From the NCBI GenBank assembly GCA_965230935.1, contig OZ246400.1, forward strand, positions 173,705-237,704: a stretch of DNA of 64,000 bases, in the 5' to 3' direction. Numbering within the stretch: position 1 is the first letter of the stretch; each line of letters starts with the position of its first letter. Below are positions 2,084 to 44,020 of the stretch, piece after piece. Position numbers and translations under genes: made by a program. Under the pieces are notes generated by a model, which saw nothing but the letters and a program-made list of their open reading frames with translations, was not told the DNA's origin and searched no databases. The stretch is from an uncultured Gammaproteobacteria bacterium. Its GTDB lineage: Bacteria; Patescibacteriota; Patescibacteriia; Magasanikbacterales; JBBTQS01.

Positions 2084-3862
2084 ATGAATGATATTGCGCA
2101 AATTAAGGACCGCCTTGATGTGGTGGAGTTGTTAAGTGAGTATTTGCAACTCAAGCAAGCAGGGGCTAATTGGAAGGGGTTATGTCCATTTCACAATGAA
2201 AAAACTCCTTCGTTTATGGTGTCGCGCGAAAAGCAAATTTGGCATTGTTTTGGTTGTGGAAAGGGCGGAGATATTTTTGAGTTTATTCAAGAGATTGAGG
2301 GCATGGAGTTCGTCGAGGCGCTTACTGTTTTGGCACAACGGGCAGGGGTCACACTCCAGCGTGACGGATCATATTCAAAAGAGGCAACCGACAAACGAAA
2401 TCGTCTGCGAGAAGTCCTGTCGCTCGCTGCGCAGTTTTATCACACGGTTTTGCGTGACTCAGATGCTGCACAAGAGGCGCGAGCATATCTTGAGCGCCGG
2501 GGGGTGAATCAAAACATGATCGAGCAGTTTCAGATTGGTTTTATTCCTGAACCAAAAGATTCTTGGACAGTACTCACTGATTTTTTAACCAAAAAGAAAG
2601 GGTATGGAGTAGAGGAGTGTATTGCCGCTGGGATCAGTAAGCGCAATGACCGTGGGCGTGTGTATGACACGTTTCGTGCTCGGGTGATGTTTCCACTATG
2701 CGATGTTCATGGTTCAGTAGTTGGGTTTACCGGACGTCTGTTGCAAGACCAGGATGGCGTTGGTAAGTATGTGAATACGCCACAGACCGAGTTGTTTGAT
2801 AAAAGTCAAGTGTTGTATGGATTGCATTTTGCAAAGCAGTCGGCTAAACAGGCAGGATATTTTGTGTTAGTTGAAGGGCAGTTGGATGTGATTGCCGCAC
2901 ATCAGATTGGTATGAGTAATGTCGTGGCCGCATCAGGCACTGCGCTTACTGATCGACATGTGCAGATATTAAAACGATATGTTCCACAAATTCGAGTAGC
3001 ATTTGATAATGATAGTGCTGGAGAACGTGCTGCTAAGCATGGAATTGATTTGGCACTTGAAGTAGGACTTGATGTGCGTGTTATTCAAATTCCTGAGGAC
3101 GCAGGTGAAGATCCAGACGCTTGTATTCAGCGCGACCCTGATGTGTGGAAACAAGTAGTACAGCAAGCAAAACCAGTTTTTGAATACTATATTGATCGGT
3201 ATGTTACTCCAGAGGTTCGTTCTGACCCGCAACAGTTGCGACAGGTGAGTGATATGCTTGCACAAGAATTAGCCCGCATTAGCGATCCGGTTTTGGTTGA
3301 TTTTTGGGCGCAGAAAATTAGCATTGCATTGGGTGCAAGTATTGAAAGTGTCAAACAAAAGGCGCAGCTGTCTGCTAAAAAAAAGCAGCGGTATACCACG
3401 AATACCACTCCTGTCAAAACACCATCAACACCACCGGCTAAGAAGACGCGAGGAGAAAAACTTGGTCAGTATCTTTTGATGATTTTAGTCAAAGCTCCTG
3501 AGCTTATTGCGCAAGAACAACTCGATCCAATGGTGTTTGTTTCAGCGAAGGATCAACAGCTTTACAGATATCTTCAGGCACAGTATACTAGTAACCAACA
3601 TCATGAATCTGATACTACAGATCGCAATGTATCTGAGATCAAGAATCATCTAGCGGCTATCGAGCTTCTCGCGCAGGAGAAGCTATTTACCTTTTCGCAA
3701 GAGCAGCTCCTTAATGAATTTACAACTGCTCGCCAAGAGCTTACCAAGCTCTGGCAGCAATATCAGCGTGATTTGCTCACGCAAGAGATTCGTGCAGCTG
3801 AAGATCGAGGAGATCATGAGCGCGCGGAAGAACTTATTCAGGCGTACCAAGCTATTTCATAA
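2084..3862 (+). CDS. dnaG: DNA primase
   Basis: CHC2 zinc finger ([11 protein letters not shown]...[10 protein letters not shown]) and TOPRIM region ([20 protein letters not shown]). Precedes rpoD as in the classical dnaG-rpoD arrangement. Confidence 0.95.
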
Positions 3863-3864
3863 TT

Positions 3865-5370
3865 ATGCCGAAAAAAGCAACGTCAAAGACTAAGAAGAAG
3901 ACCAGAAAGACCACGGCGAAGACTCCAAAGAAGAAAGTCGCTTCCACACGTAAGAGTGCAAAAAAGAAGCCTGCTAAAAAGACAGCTGCAAAGCGCGTAG
4001 TGAAGACCACAAAGAAAAAAGCAGTTAAGAAAACCACCAAGAAAACGGTGGTTAAGAAGGTTGTAAAGAAAAAGACTGCTGTCAAAAAACGCGTTACTAA
4101 AAAGCCAATAAAAAAGACACGTAAGGTTTCAGGTACTCGTGCGAAAAAGGCACCTAAGAAGGCCATTAAGAAAACCACTCGTACAACAGCTCGCAAAAAG
4201 GCAGCGACCAAAAAAACGTCACGAACCACCCGTAAAGCTGTTGTAAAAGCACCAACGCGCAGAGTCAAGGCAAAACCACCAACACGCGATACCATTGATC
4301 GGTTGATGCGCAAAGCATTCCAGCGCGGTTTTGTCACAGAAAATGAAATTTTATATTCCTTTGTTGCAGTAGAGGATTATGTGGATTTTTACGAAGGGCT
4401 GCTTGATGAGTTAGAGAATCGAGGGCTCAAGGTTGTTGAAATGAAAGAGGGTCTTTTGGGTCGCCAAAAAGATCAAGAAGATTTTCGTGATGAGTTTCAT
4501 GTTGAAGCAATCATTGATAAGGCAAAGAAGATTAATTTTACCGATATCACGGCAGATTCGATTCAAATGTATTTGCGCGAAATCGGAAAAATTCCACTGT
4601 TGAATGCCGAGCAAGAGGTTGCACTTTCAAAGCGCAAAGAAAAAAATGAACGTGCTGCAGAGTTAGCATTGATTGTTGCTAACCTTCGTTTGGTGGTTTC
4701 GATTGCCAAAAAGTTTGTCGGAAAGAATTTGACCTTGTTGGATTTGATTCAGGAAGGAAACATTGGTTTGTTTCGAGCGGTGAAAAAGTTTGAGTATCGA
4801 AAAGGGTATAAGTTTTCGACCTATGCAACGTGGTGGATTCGACAAGCAATCACTCGTGCACTTGCGGATCAATCACGTACGATTCGTATTCCTGTACACA
4901 TGGTCGAGACCATCAACAAGTTTTCTCAGATTCAGCGACGATTGTTGCAGGATTTGGGGCGTGATCCTACTCCTGAGGAAATCGCGGCTGAGATGGGACA
5001 AGATGTGAAAAAAGTTAAACACATTATTAAGATTTCTCAAGACACGGTTTCACTTGAAGTTTCAGTTGGAGAGGACGACGACGATTCAAGTTTGCAGGAC
5101 TTCATCGAAGATGTGAAAAACATCTCTCCTGACCGTGCTGCCGCTCTTGAGCTGCTCAGCGATTATGTGTACGAAGCTATTGTGGATCTCGCACCTCGTG
5201 AGCAAAAGATTTTGGAAATGCGATTTGGTTTAAAAGACGGTATTTCGCACACGCTTGAGGAGGTAGGACGTGAGTTTGATGTAACACGTGAGCGTATTCG
5301 ACAGATCGAAGCCAAGGCGCTTGAGAAGATTCAGGCAATGCCGATTATTGAGAAGTTGCGAGACTACTAA
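3865..5370 (+). CDS. rpoD: RNA polymerase sigma-70 factor with ~140-aa lysine-rich N-terminal tail
   Basis: Sigma-70 regions 1.2, 2, 3 and 4 ([36 protein letters not shown]; C-terminal [20 protein letters not shown]). N-terminus is a K/T/A-rich low-complexity tail instead of the acidic region 1.1. Confidence 0.93.
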
Positions 5371-6268: not shown

Positions 6269-8224
6269 ATGGAAGAACAACATAATCCATCTGCAGGTGC
6301 CACCCCACCTCCAGCACCCACACCTGAATCAACACCTCCGCCCCCGCTAGCGGCTGAACCACCAAAGCCGCCCACCCCAGAACCAGCTGCTGCTGGGTAT
6401 CAGCCGTCATATAGCAGCACCCCAACAAGCTATGATTCCGGTGGGGCAAAAGAGCAGCATGCAAGTAAGACATGGATTTTCGTGCTGCTTGGGATAATTG
6501 TGGTAGCGGCGCTTGTTTTCGCCGGGTGGTGGTTTTTAAAGGATGGTTTTGGCAAAGCCAAGACTCCGGATGAGTTGTTTTTGGGTGCAATAACGACACT
6601 GATGAGCGCAGATGATACCAGCATGCAAATTGATATACCATTTGATACGTTGTTGGCAGTATCAGGGGACTATAGTGAGACTGCTGAAGACTCACTCGAT
6701 GAATATGGACTTAAGTTTGATGGTGCCAAGGTTATGTTACAGGCACAGACAGCGTATACTGAGACATTGCGTGCTAATGCAAACACATCAATATCAATTG
6801 TTGTCCCGGAAACTGACACTGCAGTTGGGTTTGGTGTTCGGGTAGTAGATGGCGATATCTTTGTTCAGTTGTCAGAATTTAAGGTTGAAGAGTTTCCTTT
6901 TTCTCTTGATGCATTGACCGGCACCTGGATTGAGTTCAATATTGCTGAGATTATGGAACAGTTTGCTGCCGGTGCAGGGGATGATTCATCTTCAGTCGAG
7001 GTTGCAAGCGAACTTCAGGCAGGAGAATATCTTACACTTGATCGTGGGGTTGCGCTTGATCTGTTTCAGGAACAATATACTAAGCATAAACCATTTGTGA
7101 TTACTGCTGATGCGCAGGCAAGTACCGACGATATTGCAGCGTTGCGGGTTCAGGTAAGTGGTCAGTTTAGTCCATTCGTGTACGAGTTGCTTGATAAGAC
7201 TGTTACCTGGCAGCTCAATGAGATTGATGTGGCGATTGGTGAATATCAGAAAGATGGTGAGCAGGTTGCGGTTGGTGTTCTAGAAGGCTATCGTATGTCG
7301 CTGGTTGAGTCTTCAGGAGAACATGGTGAGCTTTTGGCAGAGCAGATTGTTGATTTTGTGGGACAAATTATGCCAGCAGCAGAAGGCGACGCTAGTTCTT
7401 CGTCCGGATTTAGTTTCGACACACCAGAGAGCGCTGATTTGGCTATTGAAGAGGCGATCTTGACCCTATTTGTCGATACTGATAGTGGAGAACCAACACA
7501 AGCAACATTGGATTTCGTCTATGTTGATGCAAGCACTCATGATCCAATTACACTGCAATGGGATGGCATCAATACTGGGTTAAAGATTACGAAGCCAGAG
7601 AATAGTAAGACTATTGAGGAAATGTTGCCAGTGGTGATGGGGATTGTCTTTGGGGGGTTAGGTGGTGAGTTTGGTGCGACGTTTGGTTCGGAAGATGGTG
7701 ATCAGGAGGGTACGCTTATTGAAGGCGAGTTGTTTGAAAGTCAAACCCCAAACACTCTTGATTCTGATGGAGATGGGATAAGTAATCGTGATGAGCTTGG
7801 TATTTGGGGTACAAATAAAGATTTAGTTGACTCTGATTTTGATGGCTACGATGACAAAACTGAGTTGGAAAACGGATTTAACCCATTAGGTCAAGGCAAA
7901 CTTGAGGTAAGCCCATTATTTTTTGGTGAGTGGCGTGGTGGTGCAACTTTCGGAATCAGCGATACTACCGCGGTGTTAGTGATTTCGTCTGATGGTACGT
8001 TTACAACGTATGAAGAAAAAGACGATGGAACAGAAGAGGTGGGATCGCGAGAAAATGGAGTATGGACTCAAGATGGTATGCGATTAAAGTTGGTAGTAGA
8101 AGATGGTCCCGAGTCGCTCTTTGGGTATCTTGAGAATACAACCAAGCTCGAGTTGGTGTTCTTTATGGATGGTAATGAATTTGATCCAGACGGGTTTGAG
8201 CTAGCACGCTTCGCAAAAGAGTAA
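6269..8224 (+). CDS. hypothetical type-II membrane protein with Pro-rich N-terminus and Ca-binding-like Asp-rich motif
   Basis: N-terminal PPAPTPESTPPPP region, one TM helix (WIFVLLGIIVVAALVFAGWWF), and a large extracytoplasmic domain. Thrombospondin-type-3-like DxDxDG run (DSDGDGISNRDELGIW...DSDFDGYDDKTELENGFNP). Confidence 0.7.
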   Translation: MEEQHNPSAGATPPPAPTPESTPPPPLAAEPPKPPTPEPAAAGYQPSYSSTPTSYDSGGAKEQHASKTWIFVLLGIIVVAALVFAGWWFLKDGFGKAKTPDELFLGAITTLMSADDTSMQIDIPFDTLLAVSGDYSETAEDSLDEYGLKFDGAKVMLQAQTAYTETLRANANTSISIVVPETDTAVGFGVRVVDGDIFVQLSEFKVEEFPFSLDALTGTWIEFNIAEIMEQFAAGAGDDSSSVEVASELQAGEYLTLDRGVALDLFQEQYTKHKPFVITADAQASTDDIAALRVQVSGQFSPFVYELLDKTVTWQLNEIDVAIGEYQKDGEQVAVGVLEGYRMSLVESSGEHGELLAEQIVDFVGQIMPAAEGDASSSSGFSFDTPESADLAIEEAILTLFVDTDSGEPTQATLDFVYVDASTHDPITLQWDGINTGLKITKPENSKTIEEMLPVVMGIVFGGLGGEFGATFGSEDGDQEGTLIEGELFESQTPNTLDSDGDGISNRDELGIWGTNKDLVDSDFDGYDDKTELENGFNPLGQGKLEVSPLFFGEWRGGATFGISDTTAVLVISSDGTFTTYEEKDDGTEEVGSRENGVWTQDGMRLKLVVEDGPESLFGYLENTTKLELVFFMDGNEFDPDGFELARFAKE

Positions 8225-9646: not shown

Positions 9647-9868
9647 ATGAGCAAAACATTCACATGCCACGAACTTGGTGGGACCTGTGAACAAACATTT
9701 ACCGGTAACACTTTGATGGAAATTGCCCAGCAAGCTATGGGACATATGCAAGCGGATGCTGGGCATATGGAGCGCATTAAGAATCTAGAGAAAGAAACAG
9801 GCGAGACTAAAGAACAGTGGTTCGCGCGCATGCAAAAAGAATTTGATAAGAGAGAGGAGAATAAGTAG
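9647..9868 (+). CDS. DUF1059-family small metal-binding protein
   Basis: 73 aa with FTCHELGGTCEQ...MGHMQADAGH pattern typical of DUF1059. Confidence 0.65.
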   Translation: MSKTFTCHELGGTCEQTFTGNTLMEIAQQAMGHMQADAGHMERIKNLEKETGETKEQWFARMQKEFDKREENK

Positions 9869-9881
9869 TGCAGTCTCATAT

Positions 9882-11006
9882 ATGAGTAACCCAAAACAAA
9901 TAGCAAAAGAGTTACTTGCCCAAGCCGATATACAAATAAATGGTAGTCGGCCGTGGGATTTACAGGTTCATAACGAAGATGTTTTTGCGCGTACCATGCG
10001 TGAAGGTTCTCTCGGTTTTGGAGAGAGTTACATGGATGGTTGGTGGGATGTTGAGCAATTGGACGAATTTTTCTCGCGTATTTTAGGCGCGCGTCTTGAG
10101 CAGAAAGTTCAGCCAAGTTTCAAAATGCTCATGACCTATTTGGGGGTCAAATTGTTTAACCCCCAAACTAAATCTCGCGCAAAACAAGTAGGAGAGCAAC
10201 ACTATGATGTTGGTGATGATTTATATGAGCGCATGCTGGATAAACGCATGACGTATACGTGTGGCTACTGGAAGGATGCAGATAACCTTGATGATGCGCA
10301 AGAGGCCAAACTAGATTTAGTATGTCGCAAGATCGGTTTAAAAGAGGGTGACAAAGTCCTTGATATTGGTTGCGGTTGGGGAAGTTTTGCGATTTATGCT
10401 GCACAAAAATATGGTGCACATGTTGTGGGAGTAACAATTTCAAAAAATCAAGTAGAAACTGGAATGGAACGAGCACAAGGATTGCCGGTTGAGTTACGCT
10501 TTCAAGATTATCGCGATGTCACCGAGAAATTTGATCATGTGGTAAGTCTTGGGATGTTTGAGCATGTTGGTGAGCGCAATTACCGTGAATATTTTGAAGT
10601 CGTAAATCGCGTACTAAAAAATAATGGTTCGTTTTTGCTCCACACTATTGGTGGTCTTAAATCAGTTTCAACAACTGACCCATGGATTGCTAAGTATATT
10701 TTTCCAAACTCAATGTTGCCAAGTGCAGCGCAGATTACCAAAGCGGTTGAAGGTCTTTTTGCAATTGAGGATTGGCATAACTTTGGTGCAGATTATGATC
10801 ATACGCTTATGGCGTGGATGACAAATGTTGATGAGGCGTGGAAAGAGCTTGTTGCGCAAAATCCAAACTACACGGATCGGTTTTATCGTATGTGGAAGTT
10901 TTATCTGATGAGCTGCGCCGGTTCGTTTCGGTGTCGTAAAAATCAGTTGTGGCAAATTGTATTGCATAAAACCGGTGTGCCCGGCGGATATACCTCTGTC
11001 CGCTAG
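9882..11006 (+). CDS. cfa: cyclopropane-fatty-acyl-phospholipid synthase family SAM-dependent methyltransferase
   Basis: VLDIGCGWGSFAIYAA (SAM motif I), FDHVVSLGMFEHVG, and the CFA-synthase C-terminal region. ATG 9882 has an AGGAGA SD upstream; the ORF track starts at TTG 9843. Confidence 0.85.
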   Translation: MSNPKQIAKELLAQADIQINGSRPWDLQVHNEDVFARTMREGSLGFGESYMDGWWDVEQLDEFFSRILGARLEQKVQPSFKMLMTYLGVKLFNPQTKSRAKQVGEQHYDVGDDLYERMLDKRMTYTCGYWKDADNLDDAQEAKLDLVCRKIGLKEGDKVLDIGCGWGSFAIYAAQKYGAHVVGVTISKNQVETGMERAQGLPVELRFQDYRDVTEKFDHVVSLGMFEHVGERNYREYFEVVNRVLKNNGSFLLHTIGGLKSVSTTDPWIAKYIFPNSMLPSAAQITKAVEGLFAIEDWHNFGADYDHTLMAWMTNVDEAWKELVAQNPNYTDRFYRMWKFYLMSCAGSFRCRKNQLWQIVLHKTGVPGGYTSVR

Positions 11007-23749: not shown

Positions 23750-24364
23750 ATGGCATTTGAACCAAAGTCGTTTTCACCAAAACAAAAACCTAAAGGACTT
23801 TCGGAAGATGCGATCAGTATTCATCATGATACGCTGTATGCTGGGTATGTAAAAAAAGCAAATGCAATTGGAGACGCCCTTGCTGAATTTGTTTCCGGAG
23901 TTCGATCACTTGATGGCTCAAACCCAACCTATAGTGACTTGCGTGGCATTAAGGAGAGTGAAACGTTTGCGCGCAACGGTATGTATCTGCACGAGTGGTA
24001 TTTTGATGTGCTGGGTGGGAGTGGTGAGCCGATTGGTGAGCTTGCAGATGCGCTGGCACAACAATATGGCTCGCTTGAGACATTTCTTGCATATTTTAAA
24101 GCCAATGGAATGGTTGCACGTGGATGGGCGGTTCTGTGCTGGGACACCAAAGCAGCTAAGTTACAGGTGTATACCGGCGATGCGCATAATCAAGGCGGAG
24201 TGTGGGGCGCGATCCCGATTATCGTGTTGGACGTTTATGAGCATGCGTACTTTATGGATTATGGAAGCAAACGTGGTGAGTACATTGATGATTTTCTCGC
24301 GAGTGTAGATTGGGAGCGCGCAACAGAGCTTTATACTCACGCTAAACAAATAACTATTTCATAA
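23750..24364 (+). CDS. Fe/Mn superoxide dismutase
   Basis: HHDTLYAGYV N-terminal motif and DVYEHAYFMDYG C-terminal signature (SOD DVWEHAYY box). Confidence 0.88.
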   Translation: MAFEPKSFSPKQKPKGLSEDAISIHHDTLYAGYVKKANAIGDALAEFVSGVRSLDGSNPTYSDLRGIKESETFARNGMYLHEWYFDVLGGSGEPIGELADALAQQYGSLETFLAYFKANGMVARGWAVLCWDTKAAKLQVYTGDAHNQGGVWGAIPIIVLDVYEHAYFMDYGSKRGEYIDDFLASVDWERATELYTHAKQITIS

Positions 24365-24365
24365 T

Positions 24366-24914
24366 ATGAGCTGTTGTCAAGAAGGATTTATCCCAACGTT
24401 TCAGGTTGGCCACCCAGCACCAAACTTTGAAGAAATGGCCTATGTTGCCGGAGAGTTTAAAACAGTCACGTTGTCAGATTACCGGGGCAAATGGGTAGTG
24501 TTATTTTTCTACCCACTTGATTTTACCTTTGTGTGTCCAACGGAGATTAAAGGATTTGCACAGTCTGCGGAGGAATTTGAAAGTCGCAATGCAGTCGTGC
24601 TTGGTGCGTCGACTGACAGTGAACATTCACATAAAGCATGGTTTGAAAAAGACATGCCCGAAGTGAAATTTCCAGTGATTGCTGATACTGCGCATCGGGT
24701 AAGCGATGCATATGGTGTTTTGGTTGAAGAAAAGGGTATTGCACTGCGCGGAACCTTTATTATTGATCCCGAGGGTGTGTTGCGCTATCAGCTCGTATCT
24801 GATTTGGATGTTGGGCGTTCTATTGAAGAGACGCTGCGAGTGCTTGATGCGTTGCAAAATGGTGGACTGTGTCCAATCGGTTGGAAAAAAGGCGACCCTA
24901 CACTTAATGCCTAA
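24366..24914 (+). CDS. 2-Cys peroxiredoxin (AhpC/TSA family)
   Basis: FYPLDFTFVCPTEI peroxidatic-Cys motif and a C-terminal resolving Cys (GGLCP). Confidence 0.88.
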   Translation: MSCCQEGFIPTFQVGHPAPNFEEMAYVAGEFKTVTLSDYRGKWVVLFFYPLDFTFVCPTEIKGFAQSAEEFESRNAVVLGASTDSEHSHKAWFEKDMPEVKFPVIADTAHRVSDAYGVLVEEKGIALRGTFIIDPEGVLRYQLVSDLDVGRSIEETLRVLDALQNGGLCPIGWKKGDPTLNA

Positions 24915-41242: not shown

Positions 41243-41337
41243 GCTACCTTATAGGAGGGCCACAGTGGCCAGCCATGCGGCGATGATTCCATGGCATGAA
41301 GCTGTGGGTTCTTTGACAATTAGAGGGGGTTCGAAAG

Positions 41338-43989
41338 ATGAATCGAATAGCTATTACCCTTGCCTTTGCCGCCCTGATCGCAGGGTGTGCAGACGCATCG
41401 GTAGATCCAGGAACGGTCGAGTGTTTCGGCGAGGCCTGTGCCAAGCCGGACGCCGATACGACCGGTGGTGGGGAGGTAGTCCCTCCGGATACCACACCGG
41501 ATGTCGGCGACACCGGTGATGACAGTGATGATCCGGATGTGCTCGAGACCGACGACGGTGCTGAGGTGGACGACATCAATGACGCCGATACGGCCGTCGA
41601 GGATGTGGACATCGACGTTCCGGACGAGGGTGATGATGGCGACACGCCGGATGTGCCCGAGACCAACGACGGTGCTGAGGTGGACGACACCGAGGACACC
41701 GACGAGACGACGGACACGGACGAGACCGATACGCCTGTTGATCCCTGCGATGGGGTCGACTGCACGGACGACAACCCGTGCACCATCGACGAGACGTGCG
41801 TGGATGGCGAGTGTGTCAGCTCGCCGGTCGTCTGCAACGATGACAATCCGTGTACGGACGATGCGTGCGTCGTGATTGAAGGTGGGTGCGTGTATACCCC
41901 GAACGCAGTGCTGTGTGAGGATGGCGACCCGTGTACGCTGGAGGACGCCTGTGTGGACGGTTCCTGTGCGCCTGGCGCACCGAAGATCTGCCAGGATGCC
42001 AACTTCTGCACCGTGGATGCGTGCGACCCGGTTTCCGGGGAGTGTGCCTTCGTGGTCGTGCCCGAGCCCTGCGATGATGGGAACGAGTGTACGCAGGAGG
42101 AGGTGTGTCAGCAGGACGCCACGTGTGGCAACGGGGCGGAAGTGGAGTGCGCAGACGAAGATCCGTGCACGAACGACAGCTGCAATCCGGACTCGGGTTG
42201 TGTGTTTGCTCAGAAGGAGTGCGACGACGAAGATCCGTGCACCGTTGACTTGTGCGAGACCGAGTCTGGCGAGTGTACCTTCGTGATCGTGCCGGAGTGC
42301 AAATGCGCTCCTGAGCAGTGTACGGACGACAACCCGTGCACGTCGGACGTGTGCAACCCGCTCGACGGGTCCTGCTCCTTCCCGTTCAACACGGAGCCGT
42401 GTGACGATGGCGACCCGTGTACGTTGGAGGACGCCTGTGCGGACGGTTCCTGTGCGCCTGGCGCGCCCAAGTCGTGTATCAGTGAGAACATCTGCCTGAG
42501 CGCGAGCTGCAATCCGGAGACGGGGAGCTGTGAGCTGAGTGAGAACACCGCGCCGTGTGACGATGGCGATGCGTGCACCCAGGAAGATGTGTGTAACGAA
42601 GGTTCGTGCGCTGGCGTGCTGATGGTGTGTACGGACGACAACCCGTGCACCGAAGGCGACACGTGCAATGGCGGCACTTGCGCCGCCGGGGAAGCCAAGG
42701 TCTGCGAAGACGGTAACCCCTGCACGGTTGGTGCGTGCGACCCGGATTCCGGGGAGTGCGCGTTTTCCCCGGACAACGGGGGAAGCTGCACGGACGACAA
42801 CCCGTGCACCAACGACGTCTGCCAGGACGGGGAGTGTGTGAGCGAGGCCAACAGCGCCTGCTGCACTGAAGACGCGCAGTGCGCTGACGAGCTGGCCTGT
42901 ACGCAGGACCAGTGCGTGGAGCAGTTGTGTAAGAACTTCGTCATTCCGGGCACCGGGCATTGCCTTATCGAGGAGGTGTGTATTCCGGAAGGGGTGGTCA
43001 ATTCGGCCAACGACTGTGAGGCTTGCACCTCGATGGTCAACCCCAACGGGTGGAGCCCGCTTGTGGATGGGAGCGATTGCGAAGATGGACAGGCGTGCAC
43101 CGAAGGCGACACGTGCAATGGCGGCACTTGCGCCGCCGGGGAAGCCAAGGTCTGCGAAGACGGTAACCCCTGCACGGTTGGTGCGTGCGACCCGGATTCC
43201 GGGGAGTGCGCGTTTTCCCCGGACAACGGGGGAAGCTGCACGGACGACAACCCGTGCACCAACGACGTCTGCCAGGACGGGGAGTGTGTGAGTACCACAG
43301 TCGCGTGCGACGACGGTCTCCCATGCACTCTGGATTCGTGTGACGAGGCGGGCGAGTGTCAGTACGAGCCCAAGACGTGTGACGACTCCAATCCGTGCAC
43401 CATCGATTCGTGCGAGCAGAGCACCGGCGATTGCGTAGGTGAGCTTGCTACGGTGAAGTTCCAGGACATCACCGCGGCCAAGTGCCTCACGCTTCCGCCG
43501 TTCATGCCATGGTTCGCGTTTGATGACTTCGATGACTCGGAGTCGCCCAATTCGAACATCTGGCACTGCGGTCACGACTGCCTGAACATCGACGCGGCCT
43601 GCCAGTCGCAAGTCGGTACGATCCGTCCCGGGTTTACGCACAACGGGGACCAGCACACCTTTACCATCGACCCGCAAGCAGCGTTTCCGGAACTTGACGG
43701 CATGACCATCTCGGCCGCCTTCACGTTCCGCAGGCAAGGGGTAACGCCCAACGACCTGACGCCGCCTGAGGTTGTGGTGAAGCAGACCATCGACGGAATC
43801 GAAACGGTGCTTGCCTCGCAGTTCCTGGGCAAATCACCGAACAACAATTTCGATTTCCTGGTCGAGTTCCTGGTTGGTGATGGTTTGGTCACGGTGTACT
43901 ACACGCCCAACGACTTCATCCCCGACTCGGAACGCACGCTGCACATCATGCTCGACTCGAACATCGAGCTGCAGCCTGTGTGTCCCTGA
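41338..43989 (+). CDS. large Cys-rich tandem-repeat lipoprotein (CxDDNPCTxDxC repeats, slime-mold/Dicty-CTDC-like)
   Basis: Lipoprotein signal (MNRIAITLAFAALIAGC), acidic D/E/T-rich linker, then roughly 20-25 repeats of about 22-25 aa with 4 Cys each (e.g. CTDDNPCTIDETCVDGECV). C-terminal roughly 170-aa Cys-poor domain. GC-rich codons. High-GC cassette gene E. Confidence 0.85.
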   Translation: MNRIAITLAFAALIAGCADASVDPGTVECFGEACAKPDADTTGGGEVVPPDTTPDVGDTGDDSDDPDVLETDDGAEVDDINDADTAVEDVDIDVPDEGDDGDTPDVPETNDGAEVDDTEDTDETTDTDETDTPVDPCDGVDCTDDNPCTIDETCVDGECVSSPVVCNDDNPCTDDACVVIEGGCVYTPNAVLCEDGDPCTLEDACVDGSCAPGAPKICQDANFCTVDACDPVSGECAFVVVPEPCDDGNECTQEEVCQQDATCGNGAEVECADEDPCTNDSCNPDSGCVFAQKECDDEDPCTVDLCETESGECTFVIVPECKCAPEQCTDDNPCTSDVCNPLDGSCSFPFNTEPCDDGDPCTLEDACADGSCAPGAPKSCISENICLSASCNPETGSCELSENTAPCDDGDACTQEDVCNEGSCAGVLMVCTDDNPCTEGDTCNGGTCAAGEAKVCEDGNPCTVGACDPDSGECAFSPDNGGSCTDDNPCTNDVCQDGECVSEANSACCTEDAQCADELACTQDQCVEQLCKNFVIPGTGHCLIEEVCIPEGVVNSANDCEACTSMVNPNGWSPLVDGSDCEDGQACTEGDTCNGGTCAAGEAKVCEDGNPCTVGACDPDSGECAFSPDNGGSCTDDNPCTNDVCQDGECVSTTVACDDGLPCTLDSCDEAGECQYEPKTCDDSNPCTIDSCEQSTGDCVGELATVKFQDITAAKCLTLPPFMPWFAFDDFDDSESPNSNIWHCGHDCLNIDAACQSQVGTIRPGFTHNGDQHTFTIDPQAAFPELDGMTISAAFTFRRQGVTPNDLTPPEVVVKQTIDGIETVLASQFLGKSPNNNFDFLVEFLVGDGLVTVYYTPNDFIPDSERTLHIMLDSNIELQPVCP
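42644..42842 (+). repeat. 199-bp perfect direct repeat, copy 1 (inside Cys-rich lipoprotein gene)
   Basis: Identical base-for-base to 43094-43292. Encodes CTEGDTCNGGTCAAGEAKVCEDGNPCTVGACDPDSGECAFSPDNGGSCTDDNPCTNDVCQDGECVS. Confidence 0.95.
43094..43292 (+). repeat. 199-bp perfect direct repeat, copy 2
   Basis: Identical to 42644-42842. The 450-nt offset is exactly 150 codons, so recombination between copies would be in-frame. Confidence 0.95.
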
Positions 43990-44020
43990 CCCTCAAGACA
44001 ACAACAAACCTACAACAGTA

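Follow-up and report, generated by a model that had tools for sequence, protein, structure and literature searches.

Does the primary sigma factor encoded in a 64,000-nucleotide (nt) stretch of contig OZ246400.1 (positions 173,705 to 237,704; in the following, the window) carry a basic, histone-like N-terminus instead of the acidic region 1.1 or in front of it, and what might such an extension do? The gene in question, rpoD (3865..5370, plus strand), encodes a group-1 (primary) sigma factor of 501 amino acids (aa; plus stop codon), of which residues 1-142 (3865..4290, plus strand) form a polybasic tail that was delimited by its composition, an AlphaFold2 model, and a comparison with homologues, and that is predicted to be disordered. 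The tail is prepended to an intact region 1.1 (sigma-1.1), and the protein is a complete Firmicute-like SigA with 140 extra N-terminal residues. The original prediction, made from the letters of the sequence, had assumed that the tail replaces region 1.1, which would leave a sigma factor devoid of its DNA-mimicking auto-inhibitor. As outlined below, this assumption can hardly be correct.

The segment that directly follows the tail (aa 143-215) has a net charge of -8 and an isoelectric point (pI) of 4.5, and an acidic, folded sigma-1.1 is located at aa 141-206 (4285..4482, plus strand) according to Pfam, profile searches, colinearity with known SigA proteins, and AlphaFold2. What speaks for a replacement is that the Pfam model Sigma70_r1_1 (PF03979), although it aligns to exactly these residues, scores below its gathering threshold in this protein (15 vs 22.5 bits, E 0.025). 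In an alignment of 58 orthologues (A1), the same columns match PF03979 with E<=1e-3 in 47 sequences, the best value being 1e-9. A profile of aa 131-215 built from 27 orthologues (A2) retrieved from the PDB the nuclear magnetic resonance structure of sigma-1.1 of Thermotoga maritima (2k6x, E 7e-5), the N-terminus of Clostridioides difficile SigA (E 6e-4), and, more weakly, sigma-1.1 of Bacillus subtilis (5mww); the profile was required, as a single-sequence phmmer search of the PDB with sigma-1.1 gave no more than E 0.4. With the full-length protein as query, residues 14-388 of C. difficile SigA aligned to aa 141-501, residues 19-369 of B. subtilis SigA to aa 146-501, and residues 12-368 of the 370 positions of the NCBIfam model PRK09210 to aa 140-501. 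Accordingly, SigA proteins of the Bacillus/Clostridioides type (7ckq_F, 7l7b_F; PRK09210) resemble aa 141-501 over the whole length including sigma-1.1 and share the short architecture, different from that of E. coli, that lacks a large non-conserved insertion; they differ in having just 2-25 unremarkable residues before sigma-1.1, where the protein described here has 140 polycationic ones.

The structural models point in the same direction. AlphaFold2 predicts for aa 141-191 a helix-strand-helix-helix-strand domain (helices 141-154, 159-165, and 169-185; strands 156-158 and 189-191) with a predicted local distance difference test (pLDDT) score of 90-95, and a second model of the isolated region 1.1 has the same topology. 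A Foldseek search with the sigma-1.1 model placed B. subtilis SigA and 5mww at the top ranks, the match being weak (E 0.2-0.3; for 5mww, E 0.3 and TM 0.40-0.44). Sigma-1.1 is followed by an acidic, low-confidence linker to region 1.2 (aa 207-230, 4483..4554, plus strand; charge profile, pLDDT 48-68). Since the full-length model has a predicted TM score of 0.27 and an unexpectedly low pLDDT in region 2, probably due to a shallow and redundant alignment, it was used exclusively for per-residue disorder and for the fold of sigma-1.1. The tempting misreading that sigma-1.1 has been lost in this protein is thereby corrected.

The remainder of the protein is equally canonical. Region 1.2 (aa 231-261, 4555..4647; PF00140, E 8e-14), region 2 (aa 269-339, 4669..4881; PF04542, E 3e-22), responsible for -10 recognition and core binding, region 3 (aa 348-424, 4906..5136; PF04539, E 9e-23), and region 4 (aa 438-490, 5176..5334; PF04545, E 4e-15), responsible for -35 recognition, all on the plus strand, are matched by Pfam in this order and above the gathering scores, and they are present in 58 of 58 aligned orthologues. 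Together with sigma-1.1 this is the complete group-1 architecture, and the rpoD product is a housekeeping sigma factor. It matches the RpoD/SigA models of NCBIfam with E 1e-125 and SigA chains of the PDB with E 1e-100. The equivalog cut-offs of NCBIfam are not reached (best scores 421 bits with a cut-off of 555, and 414 bits with a cut-off of 572), because the protein belongs to the Candidate Phyla Radiation (CPR) and is divergent and the models were built with training sequences from cultured phyla; a score below the cut-off is not in itself a sign of a different family. A protein 100% identical to this RpoD is present in public assemblies, on contigs of up to 0.93 Mb, and those of its near-homologues that have a name carry the label Candidatus Uhrbacteria or "Patescibacteria group", which identifies the organism as an ultra-small, Uhrbacteria-like member of the Patescibacteria (CPR).

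With respect to the tail itself, the description of the first ~140 residues as low-complexity sequence rich in K, T, A, and R is fully borne out. The tail consists of 36.6% K, 19% T, 12.7% A, 9.9% V, 9.2% R, and 5.6% P, contains 65 K+R residues as compared to a single acidic one (D142) and no aromatic residues, and has a net charge of +64 and a pI of 12.0. The charge is evenly spread, with a net value of +7 to +11 in every 20-aa window up to residue 130, and it raises the pI of the entire protein to 10.15, the value for the core (aa 143-501) being 5.3. Disorder of the tail is predicted by AlphaFold2, which models aa 1-140 as coil with a pLDDT of 45-54. None of the other credible open reading frames (ORFs) of the window contains a comparable polybasic tract; the inter-domain linker of DnaG (3400-3460, aa about 440-470) includes a short basic stretch rich in K, T, and P, which is far less pronounced than the tail of RpoD. 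Searches with the tail alone in Pfam, NCBIfam, and the PDB sequences gave no match, which is to be expected of low-complexity sequence and is uninformative with regard to homology.

At the DNA level, the region encoding the tail is extreme among all 426-nt windows of the 64 kb, with the highest A content (44.8%, z 4.3), the highest purine content (66%, z 3.7), and the lowest T content (12%, z -3.6). The claim that it is unusually A/G-rich thus applies to A, which reaches the maximum of the window, but not to G, which amounts to 21% in the tail DNA as compared to 26% in the remainder of rpoD. This skewed composition is a trivial consequence of the AAR, ACN, and GCN codons. It would also account for an antisense ORF encoding 161 F/V/L-rich residues (3852..4337, minus strand; ORF list), most likely no gene but a side effect of the low T content of the sense strand, because TTA, CTA, and TCA are rare where the sense strand contains 12% T and the antisense frame is therefore free of stop codons. 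As the only tandem repeat is a weak array of 15 nt x 2.4, a recent tandem expansion can be dismissed as the origin of the tail.

A basic region of this kind at the very N-terminus raises the question of whether it is translated at all. The true start could be located at or near the internal methionine of the motif DRLMRKAF, placed by the original prediction about 150 aa into the protein, which is approximately right, the exact residue being Met148; the K-rich region would then belong to an untranslated leader or constitute a small histone-like gene in its own right. This possibility, which we regard as very improbable, draws on the fact that the ATG at 3865 is not preceded by a Shine-Dalgarno (SD) motif. 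However, Met148 equally lacks such a motif, and essentially none is found at the other gene starts of the window (20 starts listed), so that an SD criterion is not applicable to the choice of the start codon in this DNA. Independently, many adjacent genes of the window are 0-4 nt apart, dnaG and rpoD being one example, which suggests coupling or SD-independent initiation.

Several further observations argue against an internal start. The Met148 column is occupied by F, I, L, or V in 56 of the 58 orthologues and by Met in only two, and it corresponds to a buried position in helix 1 of sigma-1.1, which a start at Met148 would truncate. All of the 120 nearest homologues possess in-frame polybasic N-terminal tails of 44-142 aa with net charges of +10 to +64, most of them beginning with MPK, MKK, or MPA, and no stop codon separates tail and core in these 120 homologues or in 22 tail-bearing loci. 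Orthologues hence begin with an N-terminus of the MPKK or MPAKK type and not at the internal methionine, and the suspected mis-call of the start codon was not confirmed. When the sequence was shuffled 20,000 times at matched composition, a frame open across the 142 tail codons was retained only 22 times, and 58% of the lysine codons of the tail are AAG as compared to 34% in 34 other genes (Fisher p 9e-4), both of which favour translation. The longest run of A in the tail DNA comprises 7 nt, with about 10 being expected (P 0.03); together with the lysine codon bias, this would fit a translated region in which slippage or stalling on poly(A) is selected against. To judge from these comparisons, the tail is a real, translated part of RpoD and the ATG at 3865 is the correct start.

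The gene context fits the start codon as well. The primase gene dnaG (2084..3862, plus strand; 592 aa; Pfam domains Zn_ribbon_DnaG, DNAG_N, and Toprim on the identical gene in locus L081) ends with a TAA stop codon 2 nt before the ATG of rpoD (TAAttATG), which is the classical dnaG-rpoD arrangement, and the spacing suggests translational coupling. The closest relative (protein P0002, locus L084) has the same synteny, with TAAcatcATG followed by MPAKKK, and C-termini of DnaG lie upstream of rpoD in other loci, too, so that the dnaG-rpoD neighbourhood is recovered beyond this contig.

How widespread and how constant is the tail? Among the 120 nearest homologues, 113 unique tails were used for statistics. 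They contain 34% K+R and, outside the last 12 residues, just 1.2% D+E, have a median length of 68 aa, and carry 0.19-0.45 net charges per residue; the tail of the RpoD described here is the longest and densest of them. As compared to the closest relative, the core is 83% identical without gaps, while identity drops to 53% in the tail, where 27 columns contain gaps (shuffled tails, 41 +/- 4%). In a survey of GTDB loci with one genome per species, tails of 44-123 aa with net charges of +14 to +41 were found in Uhr-, Kerfeld-, Falkow-, Morani-, Yanofsky-, and Parcubacteria-type loci, and they were absent from the sampled Saccharibacteria, Peribacteria, Firmicutes, Dormiibacterota, Armatimonadota, and Thermoleophilia loci. 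A neighbour-joining tree of the sigma cores placed the tail-bearers in one clade, 22 of whose 24 members have a tail. The character of the tail (K/T/A/P-rich, nearly free of acidic residues, with high charge density) is conserved across one large clade of patescibacterial RpoD proteins, and its sequence and length are not. The proposal of a lineage-specific trait was therefore well founded, whereas a recent gene fusion or a separate histone gene finds no support: each of the close homologues has its tail (44-142 aa) in frame with the core, and neither a frameshifted nor a separate K-rich tail gene was found upstream of rpoD in the tail-less relatives.

At the junction between tail and sigma-1.1, tail-bearers share the consensus [RPK]-Y-[VK]-[KR]-[AST]-x-P-P-[TS]-x-[ED], represented here by the 11 residues of aa 132-142 (4258..4290, plus strand). 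According to the column counts of alignment A1, the second proline is invariant (58/58), the first one is present in 44/58, the tyrosine in 42/58, and K or R in 50/58 sequences. The motif is absent from the RpoD proteins of tail-less CPR members.

A tail that retains its composition and changes its sequence could also be a neutral low-complexity expansion, produced by codon slippage and tolerated at a permissive N-terminus. The rapid turnover of tail sequence and length would agree with such an origin, as would the weak 15-nt tandem repeat in the window, the obvious periodic AAKKPAAKK repeats in two homologues (P0007 and P0013), the two members of the clade that have no tail, and the viability of the delta-132 truncation of sigma-A in Mycobacterium tuberculosis. 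We nevertheless assign this explanation a low probability, since the tail is kept in 22 of the 24 sampled members of the clade although their cores have diverged down to about 57-73% identity, acidic residues are nearly excluded (1.2%) although K to E requires one transition, the lysine codons of the tail are biased against poly(A), and the junction motif is conserved. Retention of the tail, exclusion of acidic residues, codon bias, and junction motif together indicate purifying selection, and the scarcity of D and E despite the single transition separating K from E indicates that it is the charge of the tail on which selection acts.

What function might be selected for? By physical chemistry and by analogy with other proteins, we favour, with somewhat more confidence than doubt, a role of the tail as a non-specific DNA-binding arm on sigma and on the holoenzyme. 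With +64 charges as compared to about -8 on sigma-1.1, the tail would escape neutralisation within the molecule, would bind polyanions, above all DNA, non-specifically at physiological ionic strength, and would act as a flexible arm by which the holoenzyme and free sigma remain attached to the chromosome. This would favour a search for promoters by sliding or hopping, and promoter complexes would be stabilised by non-specific contacts of the tail to the flanking DNA, while sigma-1.1 would retain its canonical auto-inhibitory role in occupying the channel. The tail would probably have grown, and would shrink, by slippage of lysine-rich low-complexity codons, with selection acting on charge and not on sequence.

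There are precedents for the individual elements of this proposal. In Streptomyces TopA, the C-terminal domain depends on its lysine repeats for DNA binding, and the repeats stabilise the enzyme-DNA complex (PMC5714199); the H1-like N-terminal domain of DdbA, which is associated with RNA polymerase (RNAP), binds and condenses DNA (PMC3643593). In M. tuberculosis sigma-A, loss of the disordered N-terminal 205 aa lowers the Vmax of transcription ~100-fold (PMC11888270). Other observations weigh against a DNA-binding arm. Variants of the same sigma-A lacking the first 42, 92, or 132 residues still support transcription and complementation, and only removal of the acidic segment 132-179 is deleterious (PMC10011835); standard assays may thus fail to reveal any need for an N-terminal extension. 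In two members of the tail-bearing clade, L015 and L021, the tail is genuinely absent, dnaG ending just upstream, and the tail is consequently not indispensable. Finally, the tail lies outside the strict actinobacterial "lysine repeat" pattern and has no match to a Pfam H1/HC2 model.

Instead of DNA, the tail might contact protein. As an electrostatic regulator of the sigma cycle, it would dock on acidic surfaces, such as sigma-1.1 and its linker, the GEDDDDSS loop of region 3, or patches on the RNAP core, and thereby tune auto-inhibition, core binding, ejection of sigma-1.1, or sigma release. The tail is covalently adjoined to the acidic sigma-1.1 (net -8), the conserved junction motif suggests a specific contact, and deletion of sigma-1.1 reportedly changes sigma release (PMC12478191). 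Yet the charge of +64 is far above that of any acidic partner surface on sigma. Moreover, a defined docking interface would not be expected for the greater part of a tail whose length ranges from 44 to 142 aa and whose sequence is not conserved. We therefore consider a regulatory role of this type unlikely, although it would be compatible with DNA binding and does not exclude it.

Composition alone predicts binding of any polyanion, and the tail is predicted to be disordered. In very small cells, the tail might thus bind RNA, polyphosphate, or other polyanions, drive coacervation with nucleic acids in the form of a transcription condensate, or link RNAP to the ribosome or to the nascent RNA. 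Complex coacervation is typically driven by disordered regions that are rich in lysine. The site of action of sigma, however, is promoter DNA, and of the fixed polyanions that sigma encounters, DNA is the predominant one, which makes these alternatives improbable in our view.

A more far-reaching scenario can be formulated, which we put forward as speculative and rather unlikely. The tail and the junction motif with its invariant proline would be a clade-defining innovation at the base of the Parcubacteria/Uhrbacteria-type Patescibacteria that made the primary sigma factor a resident of the chromosome, where DNA would serve as a store of free sigma for the recruitment of the core enzyme, or where sigma would remain tethered to DNA through the transcription cycle. 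The tail might in this way substitute for accessory DNA-contacting or initiation factors lost from the ~1-Mb genomes, and Y-x-K-x-x-P-P-[ST]-x-E could represent a novel element for specific contacts to RNAP or DNA.

In comparison with known systems, the closest counterpart in terms of position is the ~205-225-aa extension of sigma-A of M. tuberculosis and M. smegmatis, likewise a long, disordered, lineage-specific N-terminal extension on a primary sigma factor, which affects transcription output (PMC11888270) and complementation (PMC10011835). It differs in lacking a defined folded sigma-1.1 and in having an acidic critical part (aa 132-179), whereas the tail described here is basic throughout and is followed by a canonical sigma-1.1. 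Residues 1 to ~100 of M. tuberculosis sigma-A are of basic character. Homology of the two extensions was not detected: a phmmer search with the tail matched no chain of a PDB library that included full-length M. tuberculosis SigA, and the latter aligns to this RpoD only from aa 265 onwards.

Lysine repeats have been reported in the C-terminal domain of Streptomyces TopA, in HupS, FtsK, and the sigma factor HrdB, and in RpoD of Bordetella pertussis (PMC5714199). They are likewise K/A/T-rich low-complexity tracts on DNA-transacting proteins including primary sigma factors, with DNA binding demonstrated for TopA, and lysine-rich tracts on primary sigma factors were thus already noted with HrdB and the B. 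pertussis protein. The tail is much more densely charged, contains three isolated units in place of the at least three consecutive K1-2(A/T/N)3-5 units that define the strict pattern, and occurs in a genome of 45% GC, while the authors linked lysine repeats to GC-rich genomes (PMC5714199). Streptomyces DdbA also has an H1-like basic N-terminal tail on a protein that acts on RNAP, and this tail binds and condenses DNA in vitro (PMC3643593); the partner domain is DksA-like and not a sigma factor, the organism belongs to another phylum, and DdbA has no homology to this RpoD.

The C-terminal domain of linker histone H1 and Chlamydia Hc2 share with the tail a K/A/T/P-rich composition, disorder, and the near absence of acidic residues, so that the designation as histone-H1-like holds for composition. 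In line with this, the tails of 4 of the 58 orthologues match the Pfam family HC2 (PF07382) with E values down to 2.6e-10; the RpoD described here has no match at E<=1, and of the repeated motifs typical of H1 and Hc2 it contains one TPKK and no [ST][AT]AKK. The likeness is compositional and not evidence of common descent. To H1/Hc2, lysine repeats, and the mycobacterial extension alike, the tail bears a resemblance in composition, and probably also in function.

Polybasic N-termini of sigma factors are not confined to this clade. In an exhaustive HMMER search of 1.84 billion cluster representatives, of which the best 150 were examined, 26 had N-terminal polybasic tracts, and the phenomenon is therefore recurrent. 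About half of these proteins have the size of CPR sigma factors (403-465 aa) and about half are much longer (537-925 aa), among them P0155, P0166, P0182, P0256, P0257, and P0268 with tracts of 120-340 aa and net charges of +54 to +88. The lengths of 537-925 aa, and the names Bacilli or Clostridia given to members of the P0182 cluster, suggest that the long representatives come from other phyla. Among the best 150 representatives, the charge of the tail of this RpoD (+64-66) is exceeded by that of P0257 alone (+88 over 342 aa). A literature search yielded no paper on sigma tails of Patescibacteria or CPR members. The tail is so far undescribed, yet it belongs to a known theme and comes as no surprise; its novelty is modest.

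Patescibacteria make up a large share of bacterial diversity, and to our knowledge almost nothing is known experimentally about their transcription. A conserved tail with a charge of +20 to +64 on their only housekeeping sigma factor offers a concrete and easily testable handle on this process. The effect of polybasic tails on the sigma cycle is, moreover, a general question that was already raised by the work on mycobacterial sigma-A and not the peculiarity of one genome.

The window as a whole has a GC content of 45% and contains housekeeping genes for VKOR, EI24/CysZ, aminoacyl-tRNA synthetases, F-type ATP synthase, MreB, PBP2, SOD, and AhpC besides dnaG and rpoD. Downstream of rpoD, and also its neighbour in the identical contig L081, lies a gene (6269-8224, plus strand) for a protein of 651 aa without Pfam match, which is rich in P, A, and T at the N-terminus and acidic in its C-terminal part, with a single transmembrane segment being predicted. 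A methyltransferase of the CMAS type (cyclopropane-fatty-acid/mycolic-acid synthase family) and an adjacent pair of SOD and AhpC are encoded at 9843-11006 and 23750-24914 (both plus strand), respectively; these represent lipid-modification and oxidative-stress genes in a CPR genome. At 41338-43989 (plus strand), a predicted lipoprotein of 883 aa is encoded (lipobox LIAGC), which is extremely acidic and rich in cysteine, contains C-x-D-x-N-P-C-T repeats matching the Pfam family Dicty_CTDC (7 stretches, E 1e-35), and has an internal duplication ~450 nt apart. Its gene is situated within an island of 62-64% GC (about 41500-44000), which, compared to the 45% of the window, suggests horizontal acquisition, and an antisense ORF of 805 aa opposite to it (41320-43737) is probably an artefact of the GC-richness.

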